From the UHGV virus genome UHGV-2199876: DNA of 29,731 bases, one strand, 5' to 3'. Below are positions 9,817-29,731 of this stretch, piece after piece. The notes under the pieces were generated by a model, which saw nothing but the letters and a program-made list of their open reading frames with translations, had not been told where the DNA came from and made no database searches. The first letter of the stretch is position 1. Every line of letters begins with the position of its first letter. Made by a program: the position numbers and the translations under genes. The DNA is from a virus.

Positions 9817-9829
9817 AGCATACGGTAAA

Positions 9830-9856: not shown

Positions 9857-9861
9857 GTGGT

Positions 9862-10256: not shown

Positions 10257-10423
10257 GCAGCCACCTCGCGCACCGGAATACGGGCAGACAATACCAGGAC
10301 AAACCGGCTGGCGAACTGGCGACGAGCTTCCCGTTCAGATGACGCGATAGTGGAAAGATGATGAATGTGGGACTTTTTGTCTGTGCGAACGACTGCCGCA
10401 AATTTGAATTTGAACATGGTATG

Positions 10424-10640: not shown

Positions 10641-10797
10641 ACTGCGGGATTTACCGCAGCGAGGTGACTTTACCTCCAAAACGACGCACACGTCAATAAT
10701 TTGCAAAGACATTTTACCCCGTGACCAGTCACGGGGACAGGTGTTTTTATAGTTTGCTTGAACGAGTGATCAGAAGTTGATCGTTAATCAAAGGCCA

Positions 10798-11109: not shown

Positions 11110-11112
11110 AAC

Positions 11113-11520
11113 TCAATCAACTTTTTTAGCATCAGCCATACGCTTCAACCAGTAATCAACAATCGGCTGCTCATCCACAGAATGTTTACCAGGTATAACT
11201 CGCCAGCTATCTTGCGAAAATCTGCCGTACTTACGCGGGAATAGGCCTTTCTTTATCTCCCGCCATGTACTAGGAAAACCATCCACAAAAGTACCAATTA
11301 ACAGGAGAGGGACAAAAATCAGAGCTACAAACCATCGTGCAAGAAAGTGTTCAACAACAACATTTTCACCGTTGTAGTAATACGCATACGCATCCAATAT
11401 GCGAATTTTCCTTACCTTAAAAATAGCCTTATGCTGAGAACGACTTAACTTGATACGAATGTATCCCTTATCCAAAGGGGATTCGTATTTGTATGATTGA
11501 AAAGCCATTTTTAACCCCAC
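11113..11520 (-). CDS. Hypothetical membrane protein (135 aa, one central TM segment)
   Basis: ORF with the hydrophobic segment WFVALIFVPLLLIGTFV. Translationally coupled to its neighbours. Confidence 0.5.
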   Translation of the reverse strand: MGLKMAFQSYKYESPLDKGYIRIKLSRSQHKAIFKVRKIRILDAYAYYYNGENVVVEHFLARWFVALIFVPLLLIGTFVDGFPSTWREIKKGLFPRKYGRFSQDSWRVIPGKHSVDEQPIVDYWLKRMADAKKVD

Positions 11521-11837
11521 TCACCATCAGCAAACAAAGCGTTATACTCTGACAATGGTAGACGGTTGCCCTCGATGTAGAGATTCAGTTCATACTTCGT
11601 CTCCGGGTTTTCCTTGTCGGCTCGTTCCCAACGCTCAGCAGCCTTACGCGCCAATAATTCCACTGCTTTCAGGTAATCCTCCGTACGGAACCAGCCAAAG
11701 ATAAGGCCACGATCTGTTACAGCCCAGGCGACCTTTTTTTCTTCCTCCTGGATAGCCTTAATGCGTCGATCGCATTCATCCCGGCAGAACTGCAGCTGAC
11801 GGTAATCAAGTTTGTCCAAAAATGCAGTAGTAGACAT
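11511..11837 (-). CDS. Hypothetical protein (108 aa)
   Basis: ORF with a GGGGAG SD upstream. Sits in the repA-distal operon. No recognised motif. Confidence 0.5.
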   Translation of the reverse strand: MSTTAFLDKLDYRQLQFCRDECDRRIKAIQEEEKKVAWAVTDRGLIFGWFRTEDYLKAVELLARKAAERWERADKENPETKYELNLYIEGNRLPLSEYNALFADGEWG

Positions 11838-11841
11838 ATTT

Positions 11842-12033
11842 TTACTCCCCGTTCACCGAAAAATCACGATAGAAGCGTTTCCACATACGATAAGTCTGCG
11901 CGAGTTGTTCACCACGAAACATCGCCTTCCTGGCCTTCATGTTTTCCTTGTGAGACTTTCGATCTATGAACCAAAACCATTGCTGGAACACACAAAGCAA
12001 GAGACACAAAGATAATATCCACTGATTACCCAT
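11842..12033 (-). CDS. Small membrane protein (63 aa) translationally coupled to the repA stop
   Basis: The ATG at 12033-12031 overlaps the repA TAA (ATGGGTAA). Sequence MGNQWILSLCLLLCVFQQWFWF... has one TM segment. The ORF track's longer 102-aa version runs back into repA. Confidence 0.35.
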   Translation of the reverse strand: MGNQWILSLCLLLCVFQQWFWFIDRKSHKENMKARKAMFRGEQLAQTYRMWKRFYRDFSVNGE

Positions 12034-15000
12034 AGAAAGCGCCCTGCTCTTCGTAGCTGCATGAGCTATTCCCGGTAATGTATTCTCGTAACCGCCGCAA
12101 TTCATTGCTGGACAAGTGATCCATGAACTCTGTGAGATACAGAGATGCAAACGTCATAGCTATGCTGGCTGATGACCATGATGACATAGTGGCCAGCTCC
12201 TCACCGGAAAGCGCACTCATCGCCCAGGACTCAGGAACAGCCACCGGCAATACGGCCAAAGCCTCAGAAATTACTGAATGAGGGGCGTTTTGAACCTGCT
12301 CGTTTGTGGATCGCGTTTTATCATCCATATATATATTGAGATCCAAATCGCGATCCATTTCGATGGCTGTCTTCTCGGCTTTACGCGTTTTTAGGGTTAG
12401 GCCATCTTTCTGACGCTGAACAAGAATATCCAGCATAAATGCCGCTGATTCAGGCTCAACAAAACGCAAGGTTGGACGCTTATCGCCGTCTCTGCCGCGA
12501 CGTTTACCTGTTTTAAGGCCAAGAGAGTCGCAAATGTTTTTAAACAACGCTTCCGGCACTTTAGGCTTCCCTTTTGGCGTCATAAAACCACCAATGTGCA
12601 GAACGTTATTCAACAGGTCACGGCGTTCGGCTGTCATGAGGTTATCTCGAGCGAATTTGAGACGCTCCTGAGTCGCCTCGCCGGTCATAGTCTCAGGGTT
12701 GATACCGCAGTCGATAAAGTACTGCCGGAGAGTTGCTGATTTAAGCGCATAGAAACCGCGCGCCCCGACTTCAACAGTAGGAGTAGCTTTTACCTTGTAG
12801 TCGATTATTCCAGGGAATTTAGTTTTAAAGACATCATCAGCCTGCTCGCGAGTCATCGCGGTCACTACAAAATATTGCCACTGTCCCGCCTGACGGTATG
12901 CGTAGGTAAAATTGATGGCTGCTTCTTCCCGGTCGTAACGACGAGCTGTTACCTCATCTAAAAGCATTGTTTCATAGCGGCGAACTTTGTCTCGAGCACC
13001 ATCGAAATAGAATTTCAGCGTGCCTTCTTCAACCGGTAGTTTCAGTTCGTTCTCAATATCCCAGCGGACAAGTTTTGCTTGTTCTTCAAGCGTCAGCGCG
13101 CGTTTTTTTAGCAGTTCTTCACGCTCTGATTCTTGTGGAGTTTCTGTATTGAGATGCAGATCCAGTGTCTGTTCCCACACAATATCCCGCGCTTCTTTAC
13201 GCAGATCTTTACCGATATCATTCGCAGCATAATCGGTGGCCAGCGGCGATACCTTATAACCGTCGCTGTGCATGATGCAGATCATGTTGCTGGCGTAGTC
13301 GTTACGCGCAGACGCTTCAATTGCGGCTGCTTTAATTTTCATCCTGGTAAAGTCGGTATTGGCCACCCCCATTGATATACGGTCGCCATCGAAAACGACA
13401 TCCGTCAGTTCACCGTTCATGCCTGCGGTAGCAAGCAATGCCTGGGCGAATGCTCGTTCTATTTTTTGCGGGTCAGTTTCACGTTTTGCGCGAGCTTTAT
13501 CAAAGCCGATAATAAATTCTTTTGCTGTACGGTCGCGGCGTAGCATTTGCACTGCGTCGCTGGGTACAACTTCACCACAGAACATGCCGAAATGACGGTC
13601 AAAATGTTTTTGCTCAATCGACACACCGGATGAAATAGACGGGCTATAAATCAGGCCGTCGTATTTTTTGACCATCTTTTTCGGTTGATTGGTAAATGCT
13701 TCAACTTCTGGCTCTGGTTTGTTTTTCTGGTTTACACACAGAAATTTCTTACCAGGAAAATGCATTCTCAGGGTGGCTGTCACATCTTCTGCAAAGGTGG
13801 AGCTGTCGGTGGCCAACATGATTTTTTCGCCATCCGATACAGCTTTCACCACCTCGGTCATAATGCGATCTTTTTCTGTATAAAAAACCCGGATTGGCTC
13901 ACCTGTTTCGCGGTTGCGAACATCAACAGGTAATTCAATTACGTGGATCTGCAGCCATGCCGGTAAACCTAGTTCTTCACGGCGTTTCATAGCCAGTTCA
14001 GCCAGGTCAACCAGCAGATCGTTCGCATCAGCATCCACCATTATTGGGTGTTGTTCCGTTCTGGCCAGCGCGTCGATTAACGTATTGAATACAGCCACCG
14101 GGTTTTCCATAGCCCGACCGGAAAGAACGGCACGTAGCCCTTGCGTGGCCTCGTCAAAGCCAAAATAGTCGTGCTGGCGCATCAACGGTTGCCAGCAGTT
14201 TTTAACAATCGAGTTTATGCAGATGGTCAGTTTACTGGCGTATGGAGCCATTTCCTGATAGCCAGGGTCCTGATAGTGCAGGATATCGGCTTTTACACCT
14301 TTTCCTTCTGTCATCATTTCCCACAGGCCACCAATAAGGGAAACACGGTGAGCAACAGAGATACCACGTTCTGAGCTATGCATTAAAGGTCGTAACAATC
14401 CAGTAGATTTGCCGGAACCCATACCAGCACGAACGATGACTATCCCCTGTAGTGATTGCACATACTTCAGGACGTCATCGGTCATTACCGAAGTTTCAAA
14501 ACGCTTATAGGTGATATGTTGAGGACGTTTATTGGGATCAGTTATGCGTTCGCTGAATGAGCGCGGAGCCTGGGCAATACGGCACTTTTTATTCAGGCGA
14601 CGGGCAATGTGGTCTTTTACCGTAGCGCGATAGATATTTTCCAGCCCCATTTCACGCAGAACGATGCAGAACATGTTAAATAAGTCTGACGGACTGTTAG
14701 GAACCGGACAGGTTAGCATGCCAATATCCACCGCTCTCAGCAGCTCTTTGGCAAAAGTACGACGGTTATCCCGCTTAATTGTCTTCAGGCGGTTGAGCGT
14801 CAGAGATAGCAAATCAGTGCCGGTTTTCAGGCGGTTTGCAGTTGCAAACAGTTGACGTGCTGTTTCACGAAGTCCACGCAGTTTGTGCAGGTCGTTGAAG
14901 TCACTGCACTCCATTTGCGGATCGTCTTCAAAAGTTGGATAGACGCAGCGGACATCGTTGAATTTCGATAAGATTTCATAGCCAGTCCGCAGGCCGGTAT

Positions 15001-16021
15001 TCCCTTTTCCTTCTGTGGCTGATTTCCGGTCATTATCCAGTGCGCAGGTGATTTTTGCCGCCGGGTACATGTTTACCAGTTGTTCCACAACATGAACCAT
15101 GTTATTAGCGGATACAGCGACAACCACAGCGTCAAAGCGTTTATCTTTTTTCGTGGCAAGCCAGATGGATGCACCAGTAGCAAAACCTTCTGTAACAGCG
15201 ATGTTTTGCGCCCCTTTTAGCTCACCGATAACAAAGCAGGCACCGACGAAATCGCCGCTGGTTACGGCGCTGGTCTGGTATTTTCCACCTTGTTTGTCGA
15301 TTCGCTGCCAACCCACAATACGACCATCGTAACGACCGTCCAGGTGAGCCAGAGGGATAGCCATATACGTGGTTGGCCCCCTGCTCCATTTTGCGCTGTC
15401 GTGACTGGTCACGCGACGCACATCACACGAATTAAAAACGTCACGAATACCTTTTTTAATCGCATATGGCCATGAGCCGTCTTCTGCAGGAGCATGTTCC
15501 CACGCGCTGTGGAATGCCAGCCATCCCAGCAAACGTTCATGGTCCATTTGGTTGTTTTTCAGGTCATTAATTCGTTTTTGTTCTTCACGGCGACGACGTG
15601 CTTCGGCCTGACGTTCTATTCTTGCCCGTTCTTCTTCCGGTTGTGCGACCACGGTCGCATTATTCCGTTGTTGCTCACGGCGATATTCAGAAAACAGGAA
15701 GGAGAAACCGCTCCATGAGCCAGCATCGCTGCCTTTATGGACGAAGTTAATGAACGGGTAATCAATCCCTTTGCTGTGTTCCAGCCGGGAGTAAATTTCT
15801 ACGCGTCCTTTGAGGCTCTTTTCGAGAGCTTCTGGAGATGTTTTATTGTATGAAGAGTAACGCTCAACACCCCCGCGAGGGTTGAGTTGGATGTTGTCGG
15901 AACAGGCAGACCAGTTGATACCAGCCATCTGTGCCAGCTCGGTTAGTTCATCCCGTGCTGCTTCAATTAGCGAGAACGGATCGCTGCCAAAGCGATCCGC
16001 ATAGAAATCGTTTAATGTCAT
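12026..16021 (-). CDS. repA: Replication protein RepA (multidomain primase-helicase, N15 RepA / P4 alpha-like)
   Basis: 1331-aa ORF with Walker A (VRAGMGSGKST) in the central helicase region and a primase-like N-terminal part. Size and position match N15 repA. Confidence 0.9.
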   Translation of the reverse strand: MTLNDFYADRFGSDPFSLIEAARDELTELAQMAGINWSACSDNIQLNPRGGVERYSSYNKTSPEALEKSLKGRVEIYSRLEHSKGIDYPFINFVHKGSDAGSWSGFSFLFSEYRREQQRNNATVVAQPEEERARIERQAEARRRREEQKRINDLKNNQMDHERLLGWLAFHSAWEHAPAEDGSWPYAIKKGIRDVFNSCDVRRVTSHDSAKWSRGPTTYMAIPLAHLDGRYDGRIVGWQRIDKQGGKYQTSAVTSGDFVGACFVIGELKGAQNIAVTEGFATGASIWLATKKDKRFDAVVVAVSANNMVHVVEQLVNMYPAAKITCALDNDRKSATEGKGNTGLRTGYEILSKFNDVRCVYPTFEDDPQMECSDFNDLHKLRGLRETARQLFATANRLKTGTDLLSLTLNRLKTIKRDNRRTFAKELLRAVDIGMLTCPVPNSPSDLFNMFCIVLREMGLENIYRATVKDHIARRLNKKCRIAQAPRSFSERITDPNKRPQHITYKRFETSVMTDDVLKYVQSLQGIVIVRAGMGSGKSTGLLRPLMHSSERGISVAHRVSLIGGLWEMMTEGKGVKADILHYQDPGYQEMAPYASKLTICINSIVKNCWQPLMRQHDYFGFDEATQGLRAVLSGRAMENPVAVFNTLIDALARTEQHPIMVDADANDLLVDLAELAMKRREELGLPAWLQIHVIELPVDVRNRETGEPIRVFYTEKDRIMTEVVKAVSDGEKIMLATDSSTFAEDVTATLRMHFPGKKFLCVNQKNKPEPEVEAFTNQPKKMVKKYDGLIYSPSISSGVSIEQKHFDRHFGMFCGEVVPSDAVQMLRRDRTAKEFIIGFDKARAKRETDPQKIERAFAQALLATAGMNGELTDVVFDGDRISMGVANTDFTRMKIKAAAIEASARNDYASNMICIMHSDGYKVSPLATDYAANDIGKDLRKEARDIVWEQTLDLHLNTETPQESEREELLKKRALTLEEQAKLVRWDIENELKLPVEEGTLKFYFDGARDKVRRYETMLLDEVTARRYDREEAAINFTYAYRQAGQWQYFVVTAMTREQADDVFKTKFPGIIDYKVKATPTVEVGARGFYALKSATLRQYFIDCGINPETMTGEATQERLKFARDNLMTAERRDLLNNVLHIGGFMTPKGKPKVPEALFKNICDSLGLKTGKRRGRDGDKRPTLRFVEPESAAFMLDILVQRQKDGLTLKTRKAEKTAIEMDRDLDLNIYMDDKTRSTNEQVQNAPHSVISEALAVLPVAVPESWAMSALSGEELATMSSWSSASIAMTFASLYLTEFMDHLSSNELRRLREYITGNSSCSYEEQGAFYG
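15644..15659. other. sopC-like centromere site (TGCGACC-AC-GGTCGCA) inside repA
   Basis: 16-bp match to the inverted repeat shared by the four other sites. Same 7-2-7 architecture as F sopC (TGGGACC-AC-GGTCCCA). Confidence 0.55.
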
Positions 16022-16144
16022 TTTTTAGCCATTCCATGCGAATTATGTTTTTTCGGGTTGAAAAAATCCGCAGGAGCAGCCACAATAAACGCATCTTGAA
16101 TTGACGGAATCCGTCGCGTTACTGTGGCTGCTTCCTGAAAAGGA

Positions 16145-16172
16145 CCCGAGTTTGCCGACTCGGGTTTTTTTT
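16145..16172 (+). terminator. Hairpin followed by T8 between cB and repA
   Basis: CCCGAGT-ttgccg-ACTCGGG followed by TTTTTTTT. The plus-strand orientation is the strongest, but both flanking genes are on the minus strand. Confidence 0.4.
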
Positions 16173-16266
16173 CGTCTTTTTTCTGCTGCTGTAACCTGAG
16201 TCAACCCACAGAACATATGCTCTGCATTAAACCAGATTTACAGCAAACAATAAACCCCGTATTAAG

Positions 16267-16863
16267 TCATCTACCCTCAACCATGAATGATTTGATCGTT
16301 CCGACTATTTGGTGAACAAATTCAAGATCGCTTTTCCTGAAGATGGCGCGTTGTGAATTTGTTCCGTCCAGATAGTAATTTTCATCATCAAAACGGGCCA
16401 GGCGCTGGATGGTGATATTTCCTGCAGTATCACGAACCAGAACATCCTCGCCGGGAACCAGTTCCAGCGCAGAATCGACCAGGAGAAAATCGCCTGGCTG
16501 ATAGTTTCCCTGCGCCAGATTGCTGATAGTTAACGCATAAACAGTATTGCGCTGGCTGATGAATGGCAGGAATCGCTCAGTATTTGGAACCTGTCCTGGC
16601 TTCCACTCTTCATCAGGTCCACTTTCAGTTGTGCCAATAACAGGAATGCGATCAGGGTCATATTCTGTCCCATACAGCACCCAATGCACTGGCTTGCGTA
16701 AGCATTTAGCCAGGGCAATACCTATCTCCAGTGACGGCATTACGTCGCCACGTTCTAAGTTTTGGACGCCTGCAATAGAGATATCGACAGCCTCAGCAAC
16801 TTCTCGCAACGTCAGCTTCATCTCTAAACGGCGTGCTTTCAGTCGTTCGCCTCGTGTTTTCAT
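16267..16863 (-). CDS. cB: Prophage repressor CB (cI-like: N-terminal HTH plus C-terminal S24/LexA-like domain)
   Basis: 198-aa ORF with an XRE-type HTH (LTLREVAEAVDISIAGVQNLERG) and a C-terminal region with the character of lambda cI / LexA S24 domains. Divergent from the cro-like gene. Confidence 0.85.
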   Translation of the reverse strand: MKTRGERLKARRLEMKLTLREVAEAVDISIAGVQNLERGDVMPSLEIGIALAKCLRKPVHWVLYGTEYDPDRIPVIGTTESGPDEEWKPGQVPNTERFLPFISQRNTVYALTISNLAQGNYQPGDFLLVDSALELVPGEDVLVRDTAGNITIQRLARFDDENYYLDGTNSQRAIFRKSDLEFVHQIVGTIKSFMVEGR

Positions 16864-16886
16864 AGCTTAATCATAAATGATCTTCT

Positions 16887-16927
16887 TATAGCTGGCTATA
16901 AAATTTATTTATTATAGCTGGCTTTAA
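16887..16927. promoter_or_regulatory. Immunity operators: two copies of TTATAGC-N2-GCTATAA between cB and cro
   Basis: TTATAGCTGGCTATAA at 16887-16902 and the imperfect TTATAGCTGGCTTTAA at 16912-16927. A TATAAT hexamer lies at 16943-16948. Confidence 0.5.
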
Positions 16928-17176
16928 ATGCGATTTATTGCTTATAATAACCGCATGAAACCAGAAGAACTTATTCGCCACTTTGGCAGTGTAGAAAAAG
17001 CAGCGGCTGGGGTAGGTGTAACACCCGGTGCTGTTTACCAATGGTTAACCGCTGGAGAGATTCCTTCATTGCGGCAAAGTGATATTGAAGTTCGTACTGC
17101 TTACAAGCTGAAGAGTGACTTTACAACTCGGCGGGTAAAGCAGTCGATTAAGGAGAGCCGTAAGCGTGGAGCTTGA
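16928..17176 (+). CDS. cro: Cro-like small DNA-binding regulator
   Basis: 82-aa ORF (73 aa if it starts at ATG 16955) divergent from cB. Contains a GVTPGAVYQWL HTH-like segment. Confidence 0.6.
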   Translation: MRFIAYNNRMKPEELIRHFGSVEKAAAGVGVTPGAVYQWLTAGEIPSLRQSDIEVRTAYKLKSDFTTRRVKQSIKESRKRGA

Positions 17177-17876
17177 GTATATACGCAGCTGCGTCTCCAC
17201 GGCATTGGCTGATATTCATTATCGCCAGCGTGGCATCCTAGAGGTCCAGCTTGAGCAGATGCGTCTAGGCAGATCAGGACGCTTTAACAATAAACCAGTC
17301 CGGTCAATCAGTGTAGGTGATGATAACTCATACGAAGTGTCTGTTCCTGCTGAGCCGGTTAGATTCCACCAGGGCAAAACATTTAAACAATCATCAATGT
17401 TGCTCACTGATATTGATTTTCAGAGCGCCAGCTGGCGCAGGGCTATTGGTCAGTTGAATAACGAGGAATCAGCCTGGCTTTATTATTGCTACGGATGCAA
17501 GCCTAACTACAACAATGATGTGATTGTTTGTCAGTGGTTATGGCTTGATTTTCTGGTTGCGCATTCGGGTGGCGGGTTTAAAAAAATGAAGGCCTCCACG
17601 AAAAAAGCCATGAGAAAATTGATTTATTACGCGGCACAGCAGGTTAAGTCAGAACTTACGTGTGCTGAGGCAGTTGATGATAGAGAACAGGACAGGCAGC
17701 TGAGTTTTCTACTGAATATATCTATTGATAGCTGGAGACAAGATTATAAAGAACGCTGGCTTTTAATTAAGTCGCGATGTCTGAGCTTAAATCGAACTGC
17801 ATTATTAAATGCGGCGGAGAAGCGCAGTGAAATCATCAAACGCCATCGGGCAGGAAGTGCCATTCTGCCTTTGTAA
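17166..17876 (+). CDS. Hypothetical protein at the position of the late antiterminator (Q-like?)
   Basis: 236-aa ORF immediately after cro with a GTG start. Cys cluster YYCYGCKPNYNNDVIVCQW. Assignment is by position only. Confidence 0.3.
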   Translation: MELEYIRSCVSTALADIHYRQRGILEVQLEQMRLGRSGRFNNKPVRSISVGDDNSYEVSVPAEPVRFHQGKTFKQSSMLLTDIDFQSASWRRAIGQLNNEESAWLYYCYGCKPNYNNDVIVCQWLWLDFLVAHSGGGFKKMKASTKKAMRKLIYYAAQQVKSELTCAEAVDDREQDRQLSFLLNISIDSWRQDYKERWLLIKSRCLSLNRTALLNAAEKRSEIIKRHRAGSAILPL

Positions 17877-17883
17877 ACAAGTT

Positions 17884-18129
17884 ATGTTCAGGAAACCGTC
17901 GAAGCCGGAATTAAGGTATTCGGGGGTAAGAAATGAATATGTTATCTGGTGTCCAACTTGTGGTTACAGGACACGACCAGATAGTAATAAGCAGTCTGTA
18001 ATTGCCGATTGGTATTTATCAAATCAGCCAGGTAATAAGCATATAGAAAATCTTTGGATTAAGCGTTACTTGGAAATCAGAGAGGGTGCGACCGTGGTCG
18101 CACAAGAAAATGAAAATAACGCCATTTAA
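17884..18129 (+). CDS. Small zinc-finger protein (CPTCG motif; Lar-like?)
   Basis: About 81 aa from ATG 17884 containing WCPTCGYRTRPD. The ORF-track start at 17809 overlaps the upstream gene. Confidence 0.4.
   Translation: MFRKPSKPELRYSGVRNEYVIWCPTCGYRTRPDSNKQSVIADWYLSNQPGNKHIENLWIKRYLEIREGATVVAQENENNAI
18087..18102. other. sopC-like centromere site (TGCGACC-GT-GGTCGCA)
   Basis: Same inverted repeat, at the 3' end of the zinc-finger ORF. Confidence 0.6.
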
Positions 18130-18139
18130 GCAGGGGCCG

Positions 18140-18313
18140 ATGACGCATGATGAAGCAGAGCGTCTTTCAGATACTTATCGGCGGCGTGGTAAGAAAGTTC
18201 TGGTTGTTCGTTCTGATTTTTTAGGTGATGGATATTGCGTTTATGTTCATTTACCTGAATCAGAAAGAACACCAAAACCATCCAGAACATATCAACAGAA
18301 AATTTGGGTATAG
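18140..18313 (+). CDS. Hypothetical small protein (57 aa from ATG 18140)
   Basis: ORF in the early-right operon. The ORF-track start at 18086 lies inside the sopC-like site. Confidence 0.3.
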   Translation: MTHDEAERLSDTYRRRGKKVLVVRSDFLGDGYCVYVHLPESERTPKPSRTYQQKIWV

Positions 18314-18336
18314 ATAAACGTTGAGGAGAATTATTC

Positions 18337-18936
18337 GTGACTAATCAGATTATTTACGACAGGAAACGGTCTGATGTAATGATTGACCTTGAAACAATGG
18401 GTACTAACACATGTGCTCCAATTGTTTCTATCGGGGCAGTGTTTTTTTCTCCAGAAGGTGAGGAATTAGGTCCTACTTTTTATGTGCCAGTGAATCTCAG
18501 AAGCTCGATGTTGAATGGTGGTGTCGCCGATGGTGATACCATTTTATGGTGGTTGAAACAGAGCAAGGAAGCCAGAGCCGCAATTTGTACTAATGATGCC
18601 CTTAATATTAAGGATGCACTTTTTGAATTATCACACTTTATTACTTGCCATGCATGTAATTTAAAAAAATTGAAAGTATGGGGAAATGGAGCAACATTCG
18701 ACAATGTAATTTTACGCGGTGCTTATGAGCGCGTTGGCTTAGCCTGTCCGTGGGAATATTTTAATGATCAGGATGTTCGAACAATCGTTAATCTTGGTCA
18801 GTTTATTGGTTTCAATCCTAAAAAAGATATGCCATTTGATGGTGAACGACACAATGCCCTGGCTGATGCTATTCATCAGGCTAAGTATGTATCCGCAATT
18901 TTCTCCCGTCTTGTAAAAGGGCAAGGAGAATCGTAA
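18337..18936 (+). CDS. DEDDh-family 3'-5' exonuclease
   Basis: Motif I MIDLETMG, motif II VWGNGATFDN, motif III H-NALADA. GTG start with a GAGGAG SD. Confidence 0.7.
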   Translation: MTNQIIYDRKRSDVMIDLETMGTNTCAPIVSIGAVFFSPEGEELGPTFYVPVNLRSSMLNGGVADGDTILWWLKQSKEARAAICTNDALNIKDALFELSHFITCHACNLKKLKVWGNGATFDNVILRGAYERVGLACPWEYFNDQDVRTIVNLGQFIGFNPKKDMPFDGERHNALADAIHQAKYVSAIFSRLVKGQGES

Positions 18937-19355
18937 TGGCAAAGGCTTTTACACCAGAACAGAGGGAAGAACTGAATAAACAAATTGTGGAACTCGTGCG
19001 CCTGAATGGACGAGGAACGGTTAGGCAACTTGCGGATGAAACTGGTATTAGCCGGTGTGCTGTTAGTCGTTTATCAAGAGAGCTTGCTGCCAGTGGTGAT
19101 TTGTATATCTCTGGCTCCGGGATATTTCTGTCTGCACAAGCACGCAAGGACTGGCAAAACGCCCGTAAAAAACTATCAAGAGTAAAGCCGAAGACATCGG
19201 TAGTGGTTGATCCAGACCTTATCTGGTCATTACCTGACGGAGAAATACGTCGTTACGACAGGCGCTTGAACATGATTTGTCACGATTGCCGGAAAAGTGA
19301 AGTTATGCAGCGTGTGCTGGCTTTTTATCAGGGAAATTTACAGGAGGTGGCGTAG
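18936..19355 (+). CDS. Putative HTH DNA-binding protein (139 aa)
   Basis: GTVRQLADETGISRCAVSRLSRELAASGD has HTH character. AAGGAGA SD. Confidence 0.45.
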   Translation: MAKAFTPEQREELNKQIVELVRLNGRGTVRQLADETGISRCAVSRLSRELAASGDLYISGSGIFLSAQARKDWQNARKKLSRVKPKTSVVVDPDLIWSLPDGEIRRYDRRLNMICHDCRKSEVMQRVLAFYQGNLQEVA

Positions 19356-19645
19356 TGAATATCGACACCACGATAACGATCGATACGGCCCTAAATATCG
19401 GTCTGGCACTTCTCGGTTGGTTTTACATCATGTTCAGTGCGGGGAAGTGGGCGGCCTCTGTTTTTCTAAAGCAGTGGGGAAAGCACCGCAAACAGGAAAG
19501 ACGCCAGAAAGTGTTAGAGGCGTTCTATGACGCATTTGAACTTAGCCGCATTGAGCCAGGCACAACAGCCAAGATAGCGACAAAAGGCGACCTGATGATA
19601 GTGATGTTCCGACAGGAGAGAGCAGATAAAGGGGAATCAGCATGA
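19355..19645 (+). CDS. Small membrane protein (96 aa)
   Basis: GTG start with a CAGGAGGTGG SD. TM segment IGLALLGWFYIMFSAG. Confidence 0.45.
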   Translation: MNIDTTITIDTALNIGLALLGWFYIMFSAGKWAASVFLKQWGKHRKQERRQKVLEAFYDAFELSRIEPGTTAKIATKGDLMIVMFRQERADKGESA

Positions 19646-20301
19646 AATTTTCCAAATTTTCTGAGTTGGTGAATCGTATTTTGTCCAACAACCACAGCCA
19701 TCGTCGCGATATGGATGTAACAATCGTTATTCATTCGCCTGGCAGCATTGGTTCAACACCCTCAGTTGAGGTTCAGTCAATTCACGCTGGTTTTGATTGG
19801 GATTCCGGGAAAGTGCTGATTTTCCCAGCACAGCCACTGACCACGCTAACACCAGAACAGATTACTGATATTACTGATAGTGTGCGCAAAGGTCAGTCCT
19901 GGCACGCATATCAGGAATACAAGAAGCATAAAGAGCAGTTGGAAAAATTGTCGATTGAACTGGATGCTGCAAAACAGCGCGTAGCAGAACTGGAAGCCAA
20001 ACCTGTAAGCCAAACTTACAAGTTAACTTTTGAGCAATGGCTGGAACAGCAGCATGACAAAATTGATGTTGATTGTGGATGTGTAAGTACTGAAATGTTT
20101 ATGCACTGGATAAGGGTCGCGTATGAGGCTGGCAACTCTCCGGTAACTCCGGATGGTCATGTTCAGTTTTCTGTTTCACTTCCTGCAGCGTTTGGTGGAG
20201 ATAAATATTTTATTGATGGTGTATTTCAACCTTTGAGATATGAGCGTGATTGTGAAAGGGCGGTTGTGGCCGCTGGCGGTGTAGTTAGTTGGGTTAAGTA
20301 A
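19642..20301 (+). CDS. Hypothetical protein (219 aa)
   Basis: Start overlaps the upstream stop. Central coiled-coil-like stretch. No recognised domain. Confidence 0.5.
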   Translation: MKFSKFSELVNRILSNNHSHRRDMDVTIVIHSPGSIGSTPSVEVQSIHAGFDWDSGKVLIFPAQPLTTLTPEQITDITDSVRKGQSWHAYQEYKKHKEQLEKLSIELDAAKQRVAELEAKPVSQTYKLTFEQWLEQQHDKIDVDCGCVSTEMFMHWIRVAYEAGNSPVTPDGHVQFSVSLPAAFGGDKYFIDGVFQPLRYERDCERAVVAAGGVVSWVK

Positions 20302-20316
20302 TTTTCAGGAGGATTT

Positions 20317-20643
20317 ATGGCGCTGACACCGGCAGAACGGCAAAGGAGACGCAGGGAACGGTTGAAGAAGGAAGGCACATCAAGACGGGACTGGATTCTA
20401 GAACCTGACGAGTTACGTATGTTGGGGGAAATTTGTGTATTGCGTAGACCAGGGCGAGTTCCATATTCGGAGAACGAAGTCATTGGTTTGCTGATCAGGA
20501 AAAACTATAAGGAGCTGCAGAAGCAGCTATCTACTACTTGCCCGCGATGTGGTCAAAAAATGCCTGTTTCAGAATGCATTTTTGATGGCGAAGGGTCATG
20601 CCACCTTACAACCACGAGGCTGAAACTTGCGCTCAAAGTGTGA
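20317..20643 (+). CDS. Hypothetical basic protein with a C-terminal CxxC (108 aa)
   Basis: Arg-rich N-terminus (TPAERQRRRRERLKKEG) and a CPRCG motif. AGGAGG SD. Confidence 0.45.
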   Translation: MALTPAERQRRRRERLKKEGTSRRDWILEPDELRMLGEICVLRRPGRVPYSENEVIGLLIRKNYKELQKQLSTTCPRCGQKMPVSECIFDGEGSCHLTTTRLKLALKV

Positions 20644-20661
20644 CTGGTCACGGAGGGATAA

Positions 20662-20904
20662 ATGGATAAAAAGGCATTGCTTTTTGAAATGATACGAAAA
20701 CGGAGCGAAAAGAGCTTTTCTGATGGTGGTGATGGGTTTGTTTTCGCTTCGATGCTTGCTTTTGATGTTGGGTTAAATAGCAGAATTGTTAAAAGGATGC
20801 TTGATTCTGCTGTCCGTACTGGACTTCTTGAGAAAGTTGATCGTGGCATAGGGAGAGAGCATAAGTATCGGGTCACACAGCAGTTTACGCAGTTAATTCA
20901 TTGA
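20662..20904 (+). CDS. Hypothetical small protein (80 aa), possible DNA-binding
   Basis: ORF with a GGAGGG SD, preceded by a GTGAC-N2-GTCAC palindrome. Confidence 0.4.
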   Translation: MDKKALLFEMIRKRSEKSFSDGGDGFVFASMLAFDVGLNSRIVKRMLDSAVRTGLLEKVDRGIGREHKYRVTQQFTQLIH

Positions 20905-20932
20905 AAATTGACCGTAAAGTTTGAGTTTTATC

Positions 20933-20948
20933 CTGTAATTTTATACAG
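20933..20948. promoter_or_regulatory. LexA (SOS) box CTGT-N8-ACAG
   Basis: cCTGTaattttatACAGta fits the CTGT-(AT)4-ACAG consensus. Lies about 40 bp upstream of the 20987 ORF and overlaps likely promoter hexamers. Confidence 0.55.
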
Positions 20949-20986
20949 TATAAAAAACCTTTTTTAGTTAAATGGTATGAGATTTA

Positions 20987-21190
20987 ATGTCTGAAGCAGC
21001 CGTATCAACTCTTGAACAACTCGATTCAAATTTGAGAGATATTGACGCCGTTCTGGATCTGGTTAGCGTCACCCTGGCTTCTCCAGAAGCCAGCCTACAT
21101 ATTGGTGAGGTTTCACGACTCATCAACATGTCGCGAGAGATTGCCCAGCATTGTCAGAAAACTATCGCTGTTGAGCGTTCACATCATTGA
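20987..21190 (+). CDS. SOS-controlled small protein (candidate AntC-like antirepressor)
   Basis: 67-aa ORF directly downstream of the LexA box. N15 is reported to have a LexA-regulated small antirepressor, antC. Confidence 0.45.
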   Translation: MSEAAVSTLEQLDSNLRDIDAVLDLVSVTLASPEASLHIGEVSRLINMSREIAQHCQKTIAVERSHH

Positions 21191-21232
21191 TGCACACCCC
21201 GCCCTTCTGGACGGGGTAGTAAAAGAGTCTAA

Positions 21233-21520
21233 TTAATAAACAGCGCGAATATCGATGGTTGCGCCGCAGGCATGAGCATATTTAGCCAAAGTTTTCATAC
21301 TTGCCCCTAAAGGATTGCTTTCCAGGCGGCTGATGGCTGACGGTCGCAACCCCATTCGTTCAGCCAGAGCTGATTTCGTTAAACCTGCTCTTTCCCTCAT
21401 TTCGTATAACATTTCGACCATCTCCAGCTCTTTATCGGCCTCTTCATATCCTTTGATGGCTTCTGGAGTGTTGAGAAGTTTTTCTTTTACTTCGTTAAAC
21501 GGGATGCCTTTCGCTTTCAT
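21233..21520 (-). CDS. HTH (XRE-family) antitoxin
   Basis: 95-aa ORF with an HTH (LTKSALAERMGLRPSAISRLE). Its start overlaps the stop of the upstream toxin-like ORF (HigB-HigA-type order). Confidence 0.7.
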   Translation of the reverse strand: MKAKGIPFNEVKEKLLNTPEAIKGYEEADKELEMVEMLYEMRERAGLTKSALAERMGLRPSAISRLESNPLGASMKTLAKYAHACGATIDIRAVY

Positions 21521-21831
21521 CAGTTCATCTCCTTCAGGCGAGTTCTGGCGATTTCGATAGCCTTCACCGGTGTTTTCTGTGTCTTTTTTACAAATGCATG
21601 CAATAGATAAATTTCGTTACCAGTCGCGTAGGCGTACAGCGTTCTTGCGATGTTTTTATCCCCTACTCGTAGTTCAAAAAGCCCTCCACCTATTACACGG
21701 CTATGGGGCATCTTCAGTTTGTTGCCTTCCTTCTCCAGTCGCTCAATTAATCTGGTCATGCGACCTCGCAAATCATCTGGTAGTTCAAGCAGTTCATCCA
21801 GTGCTGCAGGGTGGGTTATCACGTTAAACAT
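21520..21831 (-). CDS. Gp49-like (HigB/RelE-superfamily) toxin
   Basis: 103 aa with the 'phage-derived Gp49-like' character (KMPHSRVIGGGLFELRVGD...ARTLYAY...IYLLHAFVKKTQKTP). The family is named after N15 gene 49. Confidence 0.7.
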   Translation of the reverse strand: MFNVITHPAALDELLELPDDLRGRMTRLIERLEKEGNKLKMPHSRVIGGGLFELRVGDKNIARTLYAYATGNEIYLLHAFVKKTQKTPVKAIEIARTRLKEMN

Positions 21832-21978
21832 ATTATAGCCTCCATAGCCATAAAATACACCAAAACAAGAAAAAAGCGCAAATTAAAAATTTCACTAAAA
21901 AGTGAAAAATAACACTGGATGTGTTCGTTTGGCAGAGTTACAGTTCGTGTCATTGAGGGGCAATAACCCACTAACTAT

Positions 21979-22218
21979 ATGAATTTGGAGGATATTATGA
22001 ATTATCAAGGTAACGAAAAAATGCGCGACGACGTTGCGGAGATAGCTAACGAACTGTATGAGTTGTGGCAGAAGGTTGAACGTTTCGAAAAGGAATATGG
22101 TTTCAACAGTACCAACCTGGCAGACCGACTGGCTGGTCGCTTAGTTGGGACTATGGGGCCAAAACTGGCTGAGTTGAACCGCTTTATGGCTGATGTTGAT
22201 TTCCAGTTTCAAGATTGA
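21979..22218 (+). CDS. Hypothetical protein (79 aa)
   Basis: ORF with a GGAGG SD. Confidence 0.45.
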   Translation: MNLEDIMNYQGNEKMRDDVAEIANELYELWQKVERFEKEYGFNSTNLADRLAGRLVGTMGPKLAELNRFMADVDFQFQD

Positions 22219-22231
22219 TTAGAGAGGCGTT

Positions 22232-22459
22232 ATGAATATTAATGAAATTCGTGGAAATATGACTGAAGCGGCCCTGAGTGTGGAATGTGTTATGCGTGGA
22301 TACCCACGCATTTCCCTGAAAGAGTTAAGCGAAGCCTGTTTTTTGAGTCAAGCTGCCGTTGAATTTATCATCGAACAGATGATCTGTTTTGGGGTTGCAA
22401 AGCGTAGCGGGTCTGGTCGATATTCTTTGACCGATGAATATAAGCAGGCAACTTTCTAA
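22232..22459 (+). CDS. Hypothetical protein (75 aa)
   Basis: ORF with a GAGAGG SD. Followed by a sopC-like site and a terminator. Confidence 0.45.
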   Translation: MNINEIRGNMTEAALSVECVMRGYPRISLKELSEACFLSQAAVEFIIEQMICFGVAKRSGSGRYSLTDEYKQATF

Positions 22460-22465
22460 AAACTG

Positions 22466-22481
22466 TGCGACCACGGTCGCA
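22466..22481. other. sopC-like centromere site (TGCGACC-AC-GGTCGCA)
   Basis: Inverted repeat immediately after the stop of the 22232 ORF. Confidence 0.6.
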
Positions 22482-22556
22482 CAGCACAAAAACGAAAAAG
22501 CTTGGCAAAATTACGGTTTTTAGTTATTGTTTTGTTAAGTTGGGTTTTTTGTACCC

Positions 22557-22582
22557 AACAGCCAACAAGCCGCCTTTATGGC
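22557..22582 (+). terminator. Rho-independent terminator candidate
   Basis: AGCCGCC-tttat-GGCGGTT followed by TTTTTTTG. Confidence 0.55.
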
Positions 22583-22681
22583 GGTTTTTTTGTGCCTGAA
22601 AAGTGGGCGCAGGACAAGTTGCAGCTTGTCCTGCGGTCAACCCATGCCAGAGCTATAGGCTGAACCTAAAGCCCACCCGCG

Positions 22682-23803
22682 ATGCGCATCGCCGGGTTAG
22701 CTTACCCAGGCAAAAAAATAATAGCTATGTTCAAAACCACTAATATTCATGGCGCGCAACTCGTTTGCGCAGATTCTCTGCAATTTATCAAAACCATCCC
22801 TGATAACTCGGTCAATTTGATTGCAACAGACCCACCATACTTCGGCGTAAAGGCTAACGCATGGGATAACCAGTGGGATAGCGATGCTGACTTTTTGGGG
22901 TGGATTGATGAATTTTTGGCAGAATTTTGGCGGATATTGGCCCCTAATGGCAGCCTGTATATGTTTACCGGCTCTCGCCTTGCGTCAAAAATTGAATTAT
23001 TAACTCGCGACCGTTTCAATGTTCTGAACCATATCATTTGGGCTAAACCCAGTGGTATGTGGCGCGGTTGTCATAAAGAAAGTTTAAGGGCTTATTTTCC
23101 TGCCACTGAAAGAATATTATTTGCAGAGCATTACGGCGCGTCAGGTTATGCTAAAGGTCAGTCAGGTTATGCTTCAAAATGTGCAGATTTAAGAAAAAAT
23201 ATTTTTTCTCCACTAATTGATGCTTTTTCGCTGGCTCGCCGTCAGTTAGATATATCAGCCGCAGACATTAATTCAGCAACAGGAAAGCAGATGTGTTCGC
23301 ACTGGTTTTCTTATTCGCAGTGGCGGCTTCCATCATTAAGTGATTTTAATAAACTATGCGAATTATTTCGCAGGAAGGCAGATTCACTCGGTGTCCCGTG
23401 TCCATATCCTTTTAATGTTGATTATTCAGAACATGAAAAGCGTTATAGCGATCTGAAATTGCGTTATGAGGAAGTAAAGAAGCAGTATGATGATTTGAAG
23501 GCTCAGTATGAAAATTTGCGCCGCCCATTTCATGTTACTGCTGATGTACCTTATACCGATGTATGGGAGTTTCCTCCTGTGCAATATTATCCTGGCAAGC
23601 ACCCATGTGAAAAACCTGCAGCGATGATGGAACATATTATAAAAAGTAGTTCCCGCCCCGGAGATATCGTTGCCGATTTCTTTATGGGATCAGGCTCTAC
23701 TATTAAAGCCGCGCTGAAGTTAGGTCGTCAGGCAATCGGTATTGAGATTGAGGGTGAACGTTATCTTCAGACAGTTGATGAAGTGAAAAAGTTATTTGAG
23801 TAA
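22682..23803 (+). CDS. Orphan DNA methyltransferase (N6-adenine / N4-cytosine type, DPPY motif)
   Basis: Motif IV IATDPPYFG near the N-terminus and motif I (FxGxG) DIVADFFMGSGSTIKAA near the C-terminus. No adjacent restriction endonuclease. Start may be ATG 22727. Confidence 0.8.
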   Translation: MRIAGLAYPGKKIIAMFKTTNIHGAQLVCADSLQFIKTIPDNSVNLIATDPPYFGVKANAWDNQWDSDADFLGWIDEFLAEFWRILAPNGSLYMFTGSRLASKIELLTRDRFNVLNHIIWAKPSGMWRGCHKESLRAYFPATERILFAEHYGASGYAKGQSGYASKCADLRKNIFSPLIDAFSLARRQLDISAADINSATGKQMCSHWFSYSQWRLPSLSDFNKLCELFRRKADSLGVPCPYPFNVDYSEHEKRYSDLKLRYEEVKKQYDDLKAQYENLRRPFHVTADVPYTDVWEFPPVQYYPGKHPCEKPAAMMEHIIKSSSRPGDIVADFFMGSGSTIKAALKLGRQAIGIEIEGERYLQTVDEVKKLFE

Positions 23804-23898
23804 CTGAAGAATATATTCCCCTGCCGTTTTTGATGGGGTTATTTCTCGCCGTATAGTTTCCAAGCCGAAACCTCAGCAACTATTGCGAGGTAAGAGAT

Positions 23899-24171
23899 AT
23901 GAAGATGGATGAACGATACAGCAGCGCATCTTATGGTAGTGCTGGTCTTACTGCGTTCTTTGCCAGCCTGTCATTGCAGGATTGGGGCTTCATTATCGGT
24001 GTCGCGTTCAGCATTATCCTCGGTGTACTTACATACCGGCTCAATAAACGCGAGCAGATGAAGCGCACGAAGATATTGCAGGACATATTGGATAAAACTG
24101 ATGCCAATAATATTTCCGCCACGGCGATGGTTATTGGTGAATTGGGAAAGAGAGCACCGAAGGAAATATGA
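23899..24171 (+). CDS. Class II holin (pinholin-like, two TM segments, dual-start MKM)
   Basis: 90 aa with two TM segments ([11 protein letters not shown] and [18 protein letters not shown]), like S21-type pinholins. Met1-Lys2-Met3 dual start. Overlaps the endolysin start. Confidence 0.7.
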
Positions 24172-24668
24172 TGCAGTCATCATTACGCAAAGCTGTCGCA
24201 ACTGCTATTGGTGGCGGGGCTATTGCCATAGCATCTGTGCTCATCTCTGGTCCGAGCGGCAACGATGGTCTGGAAGGTGTGAGACATAACCCCTACAAAG
24301 ACATCGTTGGTGTATGGACTGTATGTTACGGGCATACAGGAAAAGACATTATGCTCGGTAAAACGTATACCGAAGCAGAATGCAAAGCTCTCCTGAATAA
24401 AGACCTTGCTACTGTCGCCAGACAAATTAACCCGTACATCAAAGTCGATATACCGGAAACAACGCGTGGTGCTCTTTACTCGTTCGTTTACAACGTGGGT
24501 GCAGGCAATTTCAGAACATCGACACTTCTTCGCAAAATCAACCAGGGCGATATCAAAGGTGCATGTGATCAACTACGTCGCTGGACATATGCTGGCGGTA
24601 AGCAATGGAAAGGGCTGATGACTCGCCGTGAGATTGAGCGTGAAGTCTGTTTGTGGGGGCAGCAATGA
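24168..24668 (+). CDS. SAR endolysin (T4-lysozyme-like muramidase with N-terminal signal-anchor-release domain)
   Basis: N-terminal Gly/Ala-rich weak TM segment ([18 protein letters not shown]), then an E-x8-D-x5-T catalytic triad pattern ([16 protein letters not shown]). Confidence 0.85.
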
Positions 24669-25132
24669 GCAGAGTAACCGCAATTATCTCCGCACTGGTT
24701 ATCTGCATCATCGTCTGCCTGTCGTGGGCTGTTAATCATTACCGTGATAACGCCATCGCCTACAAAGAACAGCGTGATAAAAAAGTCAGTGAGCTGAAGC
24801 AGGCGACCGCCACCATCGCTGACATGCAGCAGCGTCAGCGTGATGTTGCTGCGCTCGATGCAAAATACACGAAGGAGTTGGCTGATGCGAAAGCTGAAAA
24901 TGATGCTCTTCGGCGCAAGCTTGATAATGGTGGTCGGGTGCTCGTCAAAGGAAAATGCTCTGTGCCATCCTCAGCCGAAACCTCCAGCGCCTCCGGCATG
25001 GGCAATGATGCCACCGTCGAACTCTCTCCAGTTGCTGGACGAAACGTTCTCGGTATCCGGGACGGAATCATCAGAGACCAGACAGCACTGAGAACGCTTC
25101 AGGAATACATCAAGACGCAATGCCCGAATTAA
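24653..25132 (+). CDS. Rz: Rz i-spanin
   Basis: The N-terminus [31 protein letters not shown] matches lambda Rz as I remember it. Coiled-coil periplasmic domain. Confidence 0.85.
24885..25091 (+). CDS. Rz1: Rz1 o-spanin (lipoprotein embedded in +1 frame of Rz)
   Basis: [21 protein letters not shown]... has a lipobox (VVGC), then a proline-rich stretch [19 protein letters not shown] upstream. Confidence 0.75.
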
Positions 25133-25485: not shown

Positions 25486-25505
25486 AAATCTCTTTGTTTC
25501 TCGTG

Positions 25506-25521
25506 TGCGACCGTGGTCGCA
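25506..25521. other. sopC-like centromere site (TGCGACC-GT-GGTCGCA)
   Basis: Inverted repeat 20 bp after the DUF4406-like stop and just before direct-repeat copy 1. Confidence 0.6.
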
Positions 25522-25532
25522 CATTAAATACC

Positions 25533-25700
25533 GCGCTGCATCGTCGCCGTATTTCCGCATTAACCATGACCGTAGCCCGACGGGGAACTCCTCTGCGCGA
25601 GTGTGCGGAAATAATCAAAAACGATGCACACCGGGTTTTTACCGCGCTAATGATTCGCGGGTTTGTCCCTCATGCTCGCCAGTCCTGTGCGAGGGTGGAA
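25533..25700 (+). repeat. Direct repeat, copy 1 (about 170 bp)
   Basis: About 90% identical to 26473-26645 (gcgctgcatcgtcgccgtatttccgcattaaccatgaccgtagcccgacgggg...). Confidence 0.8.
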
Positions 25701-25725
25701 GAAACAGGGCATGTATTCAGGAGCG

Positions 25726-25741
25726 TGCGACCGTGGTCGCA
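25726..25741. other. sopC-like centromere site (TGCGACC-GT-GGTCGCA)
   Basis: Inverted repeat about 25 bp upstream of the ATG of the 25765 ORF. Confidence 0.6.
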
Positions 25742-25764
25742 CGGTATCTTTGTCAGGAGGTTTT

Positions 25765-26362
25765 GATGAAAGAGTTGCAAAAAATTAATTCAATAATGGA
25801 AAGATTAAGTGCTCTTGAGCGTAAGCTGGACGATTGTGGAAAGCTGTGTGTTGAAAAGCAAAATGAGCTTTACCGGGAATTTTTTACAATCGTAAGTGAG
25901 CTGATGCCAATTGTTAATAACTGCCTGATGACATCCAGATTTTTTAATGTCGATGCTACTACATCCAGAAAATTTTCTGTGAAAATTCAAGAAAGAGTTT
26001 CTGGTAGTGTGACAAGAGAGATGGCTGAACAGTTGGTGGCAATGAGCAATAAAACAAAAAGAAAAAAGGCATTGCTTGTAACAGCAAATCAGCTTTCAGG
26101 GCGCGTTGACTTTCAGGTCAGACAGGGTGGGCGTGTACTGGTAAATGATGCGTTCGTTGGACGTAGCTTTAGTCCTTACTCGATAAAATATGATGTTGAT
26201 GCAGATGATCAGGATATCAGCATTTCCTGGAAATCTGAGACAGCAGGGATTGTATTAACAGCAGAGTTGTTGAGTGATGATAAAAATGATGTCCAGCATC
26301 ATTTGGACGAAAAGAATCATATTTCTGAAATTTGTATGAAGCCACGCAGCATCACTAATTAA
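25765..26362 (+). CDS. Hypothetical AT-rich moron protein (199 aa)
   Basis: ORF with a CAGGAGG SD at 25754-25760. Visibly more AT-rich than its surroundings. Bracketed by the two direct-repeat copies. The ORF-track N-terminal extension (from 25505) is not credible. Confidence 0.45.
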
Positions 26363-26472: not shown

Positions 26473-26645
26473 GACACATCATGCGCTGCATCGTCGCCGT
26501 ATTTCCGCATTAACCATGACCGTAGCCCGACGGGGAATTCCTTCTGCGCGAGTGTGCGGAAATAATCAAAAACGATGCACACCGGGTTTTTACCGCGTTT
26601 ATGGTGCGCGGTTTTGTCCCTCATAGTCGCCCGTCCGGTGCGATG
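26473..26645 (+). repeat. Direct repeat, copy 2 (about 170 bp), immediately upstream of cos
   Basis: Paired with 25533-25700. Confidence 0.8.
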
Positions 26646-26724
26646 GTGGAAGAAGCTGGATATTAATGCAAGTGATAATTATTCTCACCTTTGCGGGTCC
26701 TTTCCGGCGATCCGGCAGGCTACG

Positions 26725-26736
26725 GGGCGGAAGGCG
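26725..26736. other. cosN candidate (12-nt cohesive-end segment GGGCGGAAGGCG)
   Basis: The flanking sequence tacg | 12-mer | CGCGGGTTTTCGCTATTTATGAAAATTTTCCGG aligns with the lambda left end as I remember it (GGGCGGCGACCT-CGCGGGTTTTCGC...). It lies 189 bp upstream of the nu1 ATG, as in lambda. Confidence 0.6.
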
Positions 26737-26769
26737 CGCGGGTTTTCGCTATTTATGAAAATTTTCCGG

Positions 26770-26895
26770 TTTAAGGCGTTTCCGTTCTTCTTCTCCGTAA
26801 CTTAATGTTTTTATTTAAAACACCCCCTGAAAAGAAAGGAAACGACAGGTGCTGAAAACAGGCCTTTTGGCCTCTGTCGTTTCCTTTCTCTGTTT
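26770..26895. promoter_or_regulatory. cosB-like terminase-binding region (R3 / R2 / R1-like elements)
   Basis: GGCGTTTCCGTTCTTCTTC, AAGGAAACGACAGGTGCTG and CTGTCGTTTCCTTTCTCTG match the lambda cosB R elements as I remember them. Confidence 0.55.
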
Positions 26896-26913
26896 TTGTC
26901 CGTGGAATGAACA

Positions 26914-27433
26914 ATGGAAGTCAACAAAAAGCAGCTGGCTGAAATTTTCGGTGCGAGTATCCGTACCATTCAGAACTGGCAGGAGCAGGGAATGCCCGTT
27001 CTGCGAGGCGGTGGAAAGGGTAATGAGGTGCTTTATGACTCTGCCGCCGTCATAAAATGGTATGCCGAAAGGGATGCTGAAATTGAGAACGAAAAGCTGC
27101 GCCGGGAGGTTGAAGAATTACGGCTGGCCAGCGAGGCAGATCTTCACCCCGGAACACTTGAATTTGAGCGCCATCGCCTGACTCGTGCTCAGGCGACGGC
27201 GCAGGAACTGAAAAATGCCAAAGAATCGGCTGAAGTGGTGGAAACCGCATTCTGTACTTTCGTGCTGTCGCGTATAGCAAGGGAAATATCCAGTATTCTC
27301 GACGGTATTCCTCTGTCGGTGCAGCGACGTTTTCCTGAGCTGGATAACCGGCATATTGATTTCCTGAAACGGGATATCATCAAAGCCATGAACAAAGCAG
27401 CCGCGCTGGATGAACTGATACCGGGGTTGCTGA

Positions 27434-27459
<26 letters not shown>
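26914..27459 (+). CDS. nu1: Terminase small subunit (lambda Nu1-like)
   Basis: 181 aa. MEVNKKQLAEIFGASIRTIQNWQEQGMPVLRGGGKGNEVLYDSAAVIKWYAERDAEIENEKLRREVEEL is close to lambda Nu1 as I remember it. Confidence 0.9.

Positions 27460-29731
<2,272 letters not shown>

Follow-up and report, generated by a model that had tools for sequence, protein, structure and literature searches.

In lambda-like phages, conservation extends to cosQ, a highly conserved 7-bp element, to the left half-site of cosN, and to the CG dinucleotides that flank cosN, and differences at bp 7–12 of the cohesive end are common, with mutations at these positions having minimal effect (Feiss et al. 2015, PMC4669245). In particular, N15 and phiD326 differ from lambda at bp 9 and 12, Gifsy-1 differs at bp 8, 9, and 11 (PMC4669245), and mEp213 and LLS carry the natural allele GGGCGGCGCGCT (PMC12315714). 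Functionally, cosN is asymmetric, the G2C change causing a ~10-fold loss of yield and the symmetric C11G change no loss, and bottom-strand nicking is carried out by a TerL held in place through TerS on cosB (PMC4669245). Packaging specificity among lambda, 21, and N15 resides in the R sites of cosB and in TerS (PMC4669245). Within cosB, R3 has been defined as bp 50–65 (PMC9026076) and I1 is located between R3 and R2 (PMC4669245). The single variant cosN that has been assayed is that of N15, with which lambda TerL yielded 132 pfu per cell, compared with 120 for the lambda cosN, and a 2-base mismatch between ends was found to carry a ~4-fold yield cost, described as transient (PMC4669245).

Here we describe the cos region of the virus genome UHGV-2199876, the whole 29,731-nucleotide stretch of which is referred to below as the window. 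The window does not carry the canonical 12-nt cohesive end of lambda and 21, GGGCGGCGACCT, an end that is also found in phages 434 and phi80. The classic example of a phage with a variant sticky end is N15, whose cohesive end, GGGCGGCGTCCG, was confirmed from the N15 sequence record. The phage of the window carries a naturally occurring sticky-end variant of lambda cos, real and ordinary, and without a new packaging specificity. Our analysis makes it highly probable that its cos is functional and of the lambda type, with a natural allele of cosN's right half, and that the altered end calls for no change in the terminase.

The cos region

The cos region of the window comprises the following features.

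26695–26701, plus strand: cosQ heptamer GGGTCCT, the packaging-termination signal; upstream of cohesive-end bp 1 and identical to lambda
26723–26738, no strand assigned: cosN, which consists of the 12-bp cohesive-end segment GGGCGGAAGGCG and the conserved CG on each side, placed by alignment with lambda
26725–26736, plus strand: predicted 12-nt 5′ cohesive end GGGCGGAAGGCG; bp 7, 8, 9, 10, and 12 are unlike those of lambda GGGCGGCGACCT, and bp 7, 8, 9, and 10 are unlike those of N15 GGGCGGCGTCCG
26774–26789, plus strand: R3 (bp 50–65), the critical site bound by TerS (Nu1); identical to lambda
26797–26823 (boundaries approximate), plus strand: I1 region, the IHF bend site between R3 and R2; its core, AACTTAATGTTTTTATTTAAAA, is identical to lambda
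26833–26848, minus strand: R2, a TerS binding site whose orientation is opposite to that of R3 and R1 and which forms an inverted repeat with R1; identical to lambda
26874–26889, plus strand: R1, the accessory site bound by TerS; identical to lambda

The heptamer is one that we take to be cosQ from lambda coordinates 48473–48479, and the exact limits of I1 are likewise presumed from lambda. The conserved features of cosN are all in place at 26723–26738, which reads CG, then GGGCGG and six further bases, then CG, and a tripartite cosB (R3, I1, inverted R2, and R1) lies to the right of it. The distance from cosQ to bp 1 is 30 bp and that from bp 1 to R3 is 49 bp, both as in lambda, and cosQ through R2 aligns without indels. 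The 57 bp to the right of the 12-mer (bp 13–69, R3 included) are the same as in lambda. Relative to lambda, there are three substitutions within the 30 bp that lead from cosQ to cosN, in the spacer, and a few between R3 and I1. R2 and R1 lie one base closer together than in J02459, the lambda reference, which is 96.2% identical to the window over 26737–27000. A reading made from the sequence alone had described the cosB and terminase as lambda-type, and this is borne out by the three R sites (R3, R2, and R1), by the spacings of these sites, and by the genes for terminase. The span given in that reading, from 26700, takes in the cos region, but its start clips cosQ.

At 26725–26736 on the plus strand the window reads GGGCGGAAGGCG, and ungapped alignment with lambda (PV340536) places GGGCGGCGACCT in the same slot; the lambda 12-mer had been given correctly in the earlier reading, which had also noted that the two differ. 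Five of the 12 bases are changed, bp 7 (C>A), 8 (G>A), 9 (A>G), 10 (C>G), and 12 (T>G), with bp 1–6 and bp 11 the same in both. The right half of cosN is AAGGCG in the window versus CGACCT in lambda, and the twofold symmetry of cosN extends over 8 of 16 positions versus 10 of 16 in lambda. The 12-mer GGGCGGAAGGCG is present once in the window, and shuffled sequences are expected to contain none. Five changes within 6 bp, set against a background divergence of ~4%, point to a local hotspot and not to chance scatter.

As in phiD326 (bp 9 and 12), Gifsy-1 (bp 8, 9, and 11), and mEp213 and LLS, the variation in the window falls within bp 7–12, with cosQ, the CG flanks, and the left half-site all kept; however, with changes at five of the six right-half positions, the allele of the window has more of them than those phages. 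The N15 end also departs from lambda in its right half only, and the G at bp 12 is common to N15 and the window. The N15 allele that was used in the equal-yield experiment contains two changes, and that of the window contains five, including bp 10 and 12, which lie next to the bottom-strand nick. Literature searches with the 12-mer and with the names of the PhiR phages found nothing relevant, and no paper on PhiR46_1. The survey of natural cosN variation by Vahanian et al. (2017, Virology 509:140) may already list GGGCGGAAGGCG.

The carrying element

The window is an N15-like linear protelomerase phage-plasmid with a lambda-type packaging module (cosB-nu1-A), not an integrating lambda, a feature of the host element that the sequence-only reading had overlooked. 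Its plasmid functions are as follows.

5099–7254: SopA/ParB ORFs, from the pEC21Z151-46K annotation
7685–7738: protelomerase target of the telRL type, a perfect 54-bp palindrome with spacerless 27-nt arms, located a short distance upstream of the protelomerase ORF
7903–9816: protelomerase ORF, from the annotation of the near-identical pEC21Z151-46K
12026–16021: CyRepA1 replication-protein ORF, from the pEC21Z151-46K annotation

The protelomerase with its telRL palindrome, the RepA-type protein, and SopAB are shared with N15 (Ravinvirus), and the replication region has 74–76% DNA similarity to N15 and phiKO2. The resemblance does not extend to packaging: the cosB of N15 is simple, containing one R3, and its TerS (gp1) is different, being 55% identical to the Nu1 of the window, whereas the window has neither an N15-type cosB nor an N15-type TerS but a complex, lambda-type cosB and a lambda-type Nu1.

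Essentially the same element, with identical cos, nu1, and A regions, is found in PhiR46_1, YDC107_1, and pEC21Z151-46K. PhiR46_1 is 99.8% identical to the window (over window 7701–25000), and YDC107_1, which is filed under Ravinvirus, is 97.5% identical to it. The E. coli plasmid pEC21Z151-46K (NZ_CP101200.1) encodes a protelomerase, CyRepA1, SopA/ParB, a Q antiterminator, lysis functions, and lambda-like head and tail genes. The sole basis for the plaque-forming status of PhiR46_1 is the host field of its GenBank record, which gives ECOR13. All three records are in linear-plasmid order from near the telomere, and none annotates cos. Because the telRL palindrome lies unresolved inside the window, and the PhiR46_1 and plasmid records start near it, the window is in circular or virion gene order.

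A ~190-bp direct repeat is present at 25533–25719 and 26483–26670; its two blocks are 98% and 87% identical, and the copies are ~950 bp apart. It brackets a hypothetical ORF of 285 aa (25505–26362) between the lysis genes and cos, a region that resembles a small cassette (moron) whose insertion was accompanied, or brought about, by duplication of its flanks.

Distribution of the allele

The allele GGGCGGAAGGCG is a recurrent minor allele that is mobile between backbones. Deposited phage records containing it number two, PhiR46_1 (PV340565.1) and YDC107_1 (CP025712.1); no cos-first public phage record with GGGCGGAAGGCG was found, both of these being in plasmid-prophage order. A scan of IMG/VR in which the 12-mer was left free identified 119 cos sites among the matches listed, ~97% of which have the canonical allele. 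Across these 119 listed sites, bp 1–5 and bp 11 are invariant, and bp 6–10 and bp 12 each vary in two to four sequences; the cosQ heptamer is altered in 2 of the 119 sites listed, the search pattern itself having fixed six of its seven bases. A second IMG/VR scan was restricted to sites with G at bp 12. Over all sequences collected, this G-at-bp-12 scan included, GGGCGGCGTCCG was counted 38 times, GGGCGGAAGGCG 30 times (a number that takes in the window and three public records), and GGGCGTCAGGCG seven times. IMG/VR contigs account for ~26 of the occurrences of GGGCGGAAGGCG, with at least three types of cosB. Further right-half alleles, namely CGACCG, AGACCG, CAGACG, ACGTCCG, and TCAGACG, were seen once or twice, and the range of natural right halves runs through CGACCG, AGACCG, CGTCCG (N15), CAGACT, CAGACG, TCAGACG, TCAGGCG, and GAAGGCG. 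Since the related natural alleles span such a range, stepwise change combined with recombination is as plausible an origin for the five changes as a single block replacement. The C at bp 11 (window 26735) is invariant in all natural alleles sampled. The laboratory C11G change is reported to be without phenotype, and a difference at this position is reported for Gifsy-1 (PMC4669245).

In the sequences collected, the AAGGCG allele accompanies a lambda-type cosB in 27 of 30 cases and is also found with two other cosB types, and the related TCAGGCG allele is likewise paired with lambda-type and other cosB types. Recombination between cosN and cosB within the conserved block at bp 13–34 would give such a distribution.

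Complete bacterial genomes extend this picture. A comparison of 5,426 complete E. coli genomes with an 81-nt query consisting of cosN and its flanks gave 7,462 cos matches and 4,203 matching records. Of these records, 37 match at ≥99% identity, ~46-kb phage-plasmids and chromosomes among them; the identical 81-nt segment is present in at least 13 independent complete-genome records. In NZ_CP122868.1 (4005179–4023259), the same cosN allele is found in a chromosomal Qin-like lambdoid prophage, in the neighbourhood of cspB, cspF, essQ, and rrrQ, together with an identical Nu1 (WP_000453567.1), a full set of head genes, and an unrelated upstream region. The presence of the same allele and Nu1 in this prophage means that the packaging module has moved between integrating lambdoid and N15-like phage-plasmid backbones. 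A scan of genome contigs with strict flanks returned 15 loci and one further allele, GGGCGGCAGACT, in Kosakonia. Cos sequences identical to that of laboratory lambda, including GTCAT after R3, are present in the assembled genomes of Raphidiopsis brookii D9, Aeromicrobium sp. PE09-221, and Archangium violaceum, as well as in a 39.8-kb “plasmid” from Alicyclobacillus fastidiosus; these most likely represent lambda DNA contamination or spike-in.

The coexistence of several alleles in E. coli phages, shuffled among cosB types, would favor a second interpretation, in which the right-half alleles (CGACCT, CGTCCG, AAGGCG, and the relatives TCAGGCG and CAGACG) are kept apart by selection as groups of compatible cohesive ends. 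If this is true, a chromosome with one variant and one canonical end, mismatched at 5 of 12 positions, could not cyclise, packaging that began at the cos of a resident prophage and ended on a superinfecting phage, or the reverse, would be penalised, and co-resident lambda-like phages that share one terminase specificity would be partially isolated in reproduction. That five of six adjacent bases differ while the 57 bp to their right are identical would fit such selection, as would the ~4-fold cost of a mismatch of only 2 bases (PMC4669245). However, Feiss et al. read the pattern as an absence of selection and the penalty as transient (PMC4669245), and the predominance of the canonical allele among the IMG/VR sites listed is unlike balanced diversification. 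We therefore regard compatibility groups as unlikely and favor a tolerated right-half allele.

Terminase genes and packaging specificity

Two terminase genes, one of the Nu1 family and one of the gpA family, adjoin cos.

26914–27459, plus strand: nu1, terminase small subunit, 181 aa; 168 of 181 residues identical to lambda Nu1 (93%); Pfam Phage_Nu1, 1.7e-95
27434–29359, plus strand: A, terminase large subunit, 641 aa; 636 of 641 residues identical to lambda gpA (99.2%); Pfam GpA_ATPase, 9.7e-51, and GpA_nuclease, 1.3e-74

Within residues 1–70 of Nu1, which contain the DNA-binding domain, D10E is the only difference from lambda, and the recognition helix (residues 17–24) is unchanged. The gpA protein differs from that of lambda at residues 9, 21, 151, 185, and 263 only; the identical stretch, residues 264–641, covers the C-terminal part of the Pfam ATPase match (47–285) and the whole of the nuclease match (322–600). 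The TerL of N15 (gene 2) is 87% identical to this lambda-type gpA by BLASTP, in disagreement with the 64.9% stated for the lambda and N15 TerLs in PMC4669245.

The sequence-only reading had called the altered 12-mer a packaging-specificity variant, and this part of it is not supported. Under that interpretation, lambda terminase would cut the site poorly and the resident terminase would have adapted to it, as might be argued from the number of bases changed, bp 10 and bp 12 beside the bottom-strand nick among them. Yet among 58 full-length lambda-type gpAs (40 from phages with a canonical cosN and 18 from phages with a variant one), no gpA residue was found that co-varies with the cosN allele, and each of the differences between the gpA of the window and that of lambda also occurs in phages with a canonical cosN. 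Two of these, N9D and S21A, are modestly enriched with variant cos, occurring in 10–11 of 18 sequences compared with 4–5 of the 40 with a canonical cosN, and would speak for adaptation; however, 7–8 of the 18 variant-cos gpAs keep the lambda residues at positions 9 and 21, and the enrichment may be attributed to linkage. Moreover, specificities as distinct as those of lambda, 21, and N15 are accompanied by divergence of the TerS recognition helix and of the R sites, neither of which is seen here. Because specificity is set by TerS recognizing cosB, and the R sites and the DNA-binding domain of Nu1 are lambda-like in the window, no change in specificity is indicated, and the published genetics, which place specificity in cosB and TerS, also find changes in cosN's right half to be tolerated (PMC4669245). 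Collectively, these observations make a change of packaging specificity very unlikely.

Predicted cleavage of the variant cos

The preferred reading, a functional lambda-type cos with a natural right-half allele, leads to the following model. Nu1 dimers would bind R3, R2, and R1, IHF would bend the DNA at I1, and the resulting Nu1/IHF complex would anchor gpA at a fixed distance from R3. gpA would then introduce two nicks, one between bp 12 and bp 13 on the bottom strand (26736/26737) and one ahead of bp 1 on the top strand (26724/26725), and the virion ends would be 12-nt 5′ extensions of GGGCGGAAGGCG. These positions are predicted because the cosQ–cosN and cosN–R3 spacings are unchanged, and from the published lambda mechanism; provided that the nicks do fall at homologous positions, the sticky end is altered relative to lambda, as the earlier reading had proposed. 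Since the cosB anchor positions the bottom-strand nick, bp 7–12 would be under little sequence constraint, and they may drift or be exchanged among lambda-like phages while bp 1–6, the CG flanks, and cosQ stay fixed. The only effect to be expected would be poor pairing with canonical ends, through the mismatches at 5 of 12 positions, in those rare chromosomes that are cut from two cos alleles.

Were the nicks to fall away from the homologous positions, the overhang would differ in length or register and the comparison of 12-mers would be misleading. The reduced rotational symmetry of cosN (8 of 16 positions) and the existence of lambda-like phages with shorter ends, such as the 9-nt ends of Cr-LKS3, lend this idea some substance, but the distance from cosN to R3, which positions the lambda nick (PMC4669245, PMC9026076), is unchanged, as are the CG at both nick sites, the left half-site, and cosQ, and the nuclease domain is identical, which makes displaced nicks extremely unlikely.

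That GGGCGGAAGGCG reflects a decaying, nonfunctional cos in a defective prophage, or an error of sequencing or assembly, has a probability close to negligible: many E. coli lambdoid prophages are defective and one plasmid copy has a frameshifted J gene, but the same sequence recurs in independent records (PhiR46_1, YDC107_1, pEC21Z151-46K, many IMG/VR contigs, and chromosomes of E. coli), the ORFs for packaging, head, and tail functions are intact, the changes are restricted to the tolerated half-site with everything essential invariant, and the deposited phage genome PhiR46_1 lists a propagation host.

Significance

The allele fits a kind of cosN variation that has already been published, lying at its extreme end, and its importance beyond annotation is small. 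For the prediction of genome ends and the annotation of cos in lambda-like phages, it means that the lambda 12-mer is not to be presumed, and the ends predicted for the phage of the window would fail to anneal with those of lambda, as might matter in work with cosmids or in vitro packaging. The window also provides a natural pairing of a lambda-type TerL with a heavily altered right half of cosN, which is consistent with the published anchoring model of nicking. Furthermore, it shows that cosN alleles and cosB/TerS modules shuffle independently among the phages and phage-plasmids of E. coli.
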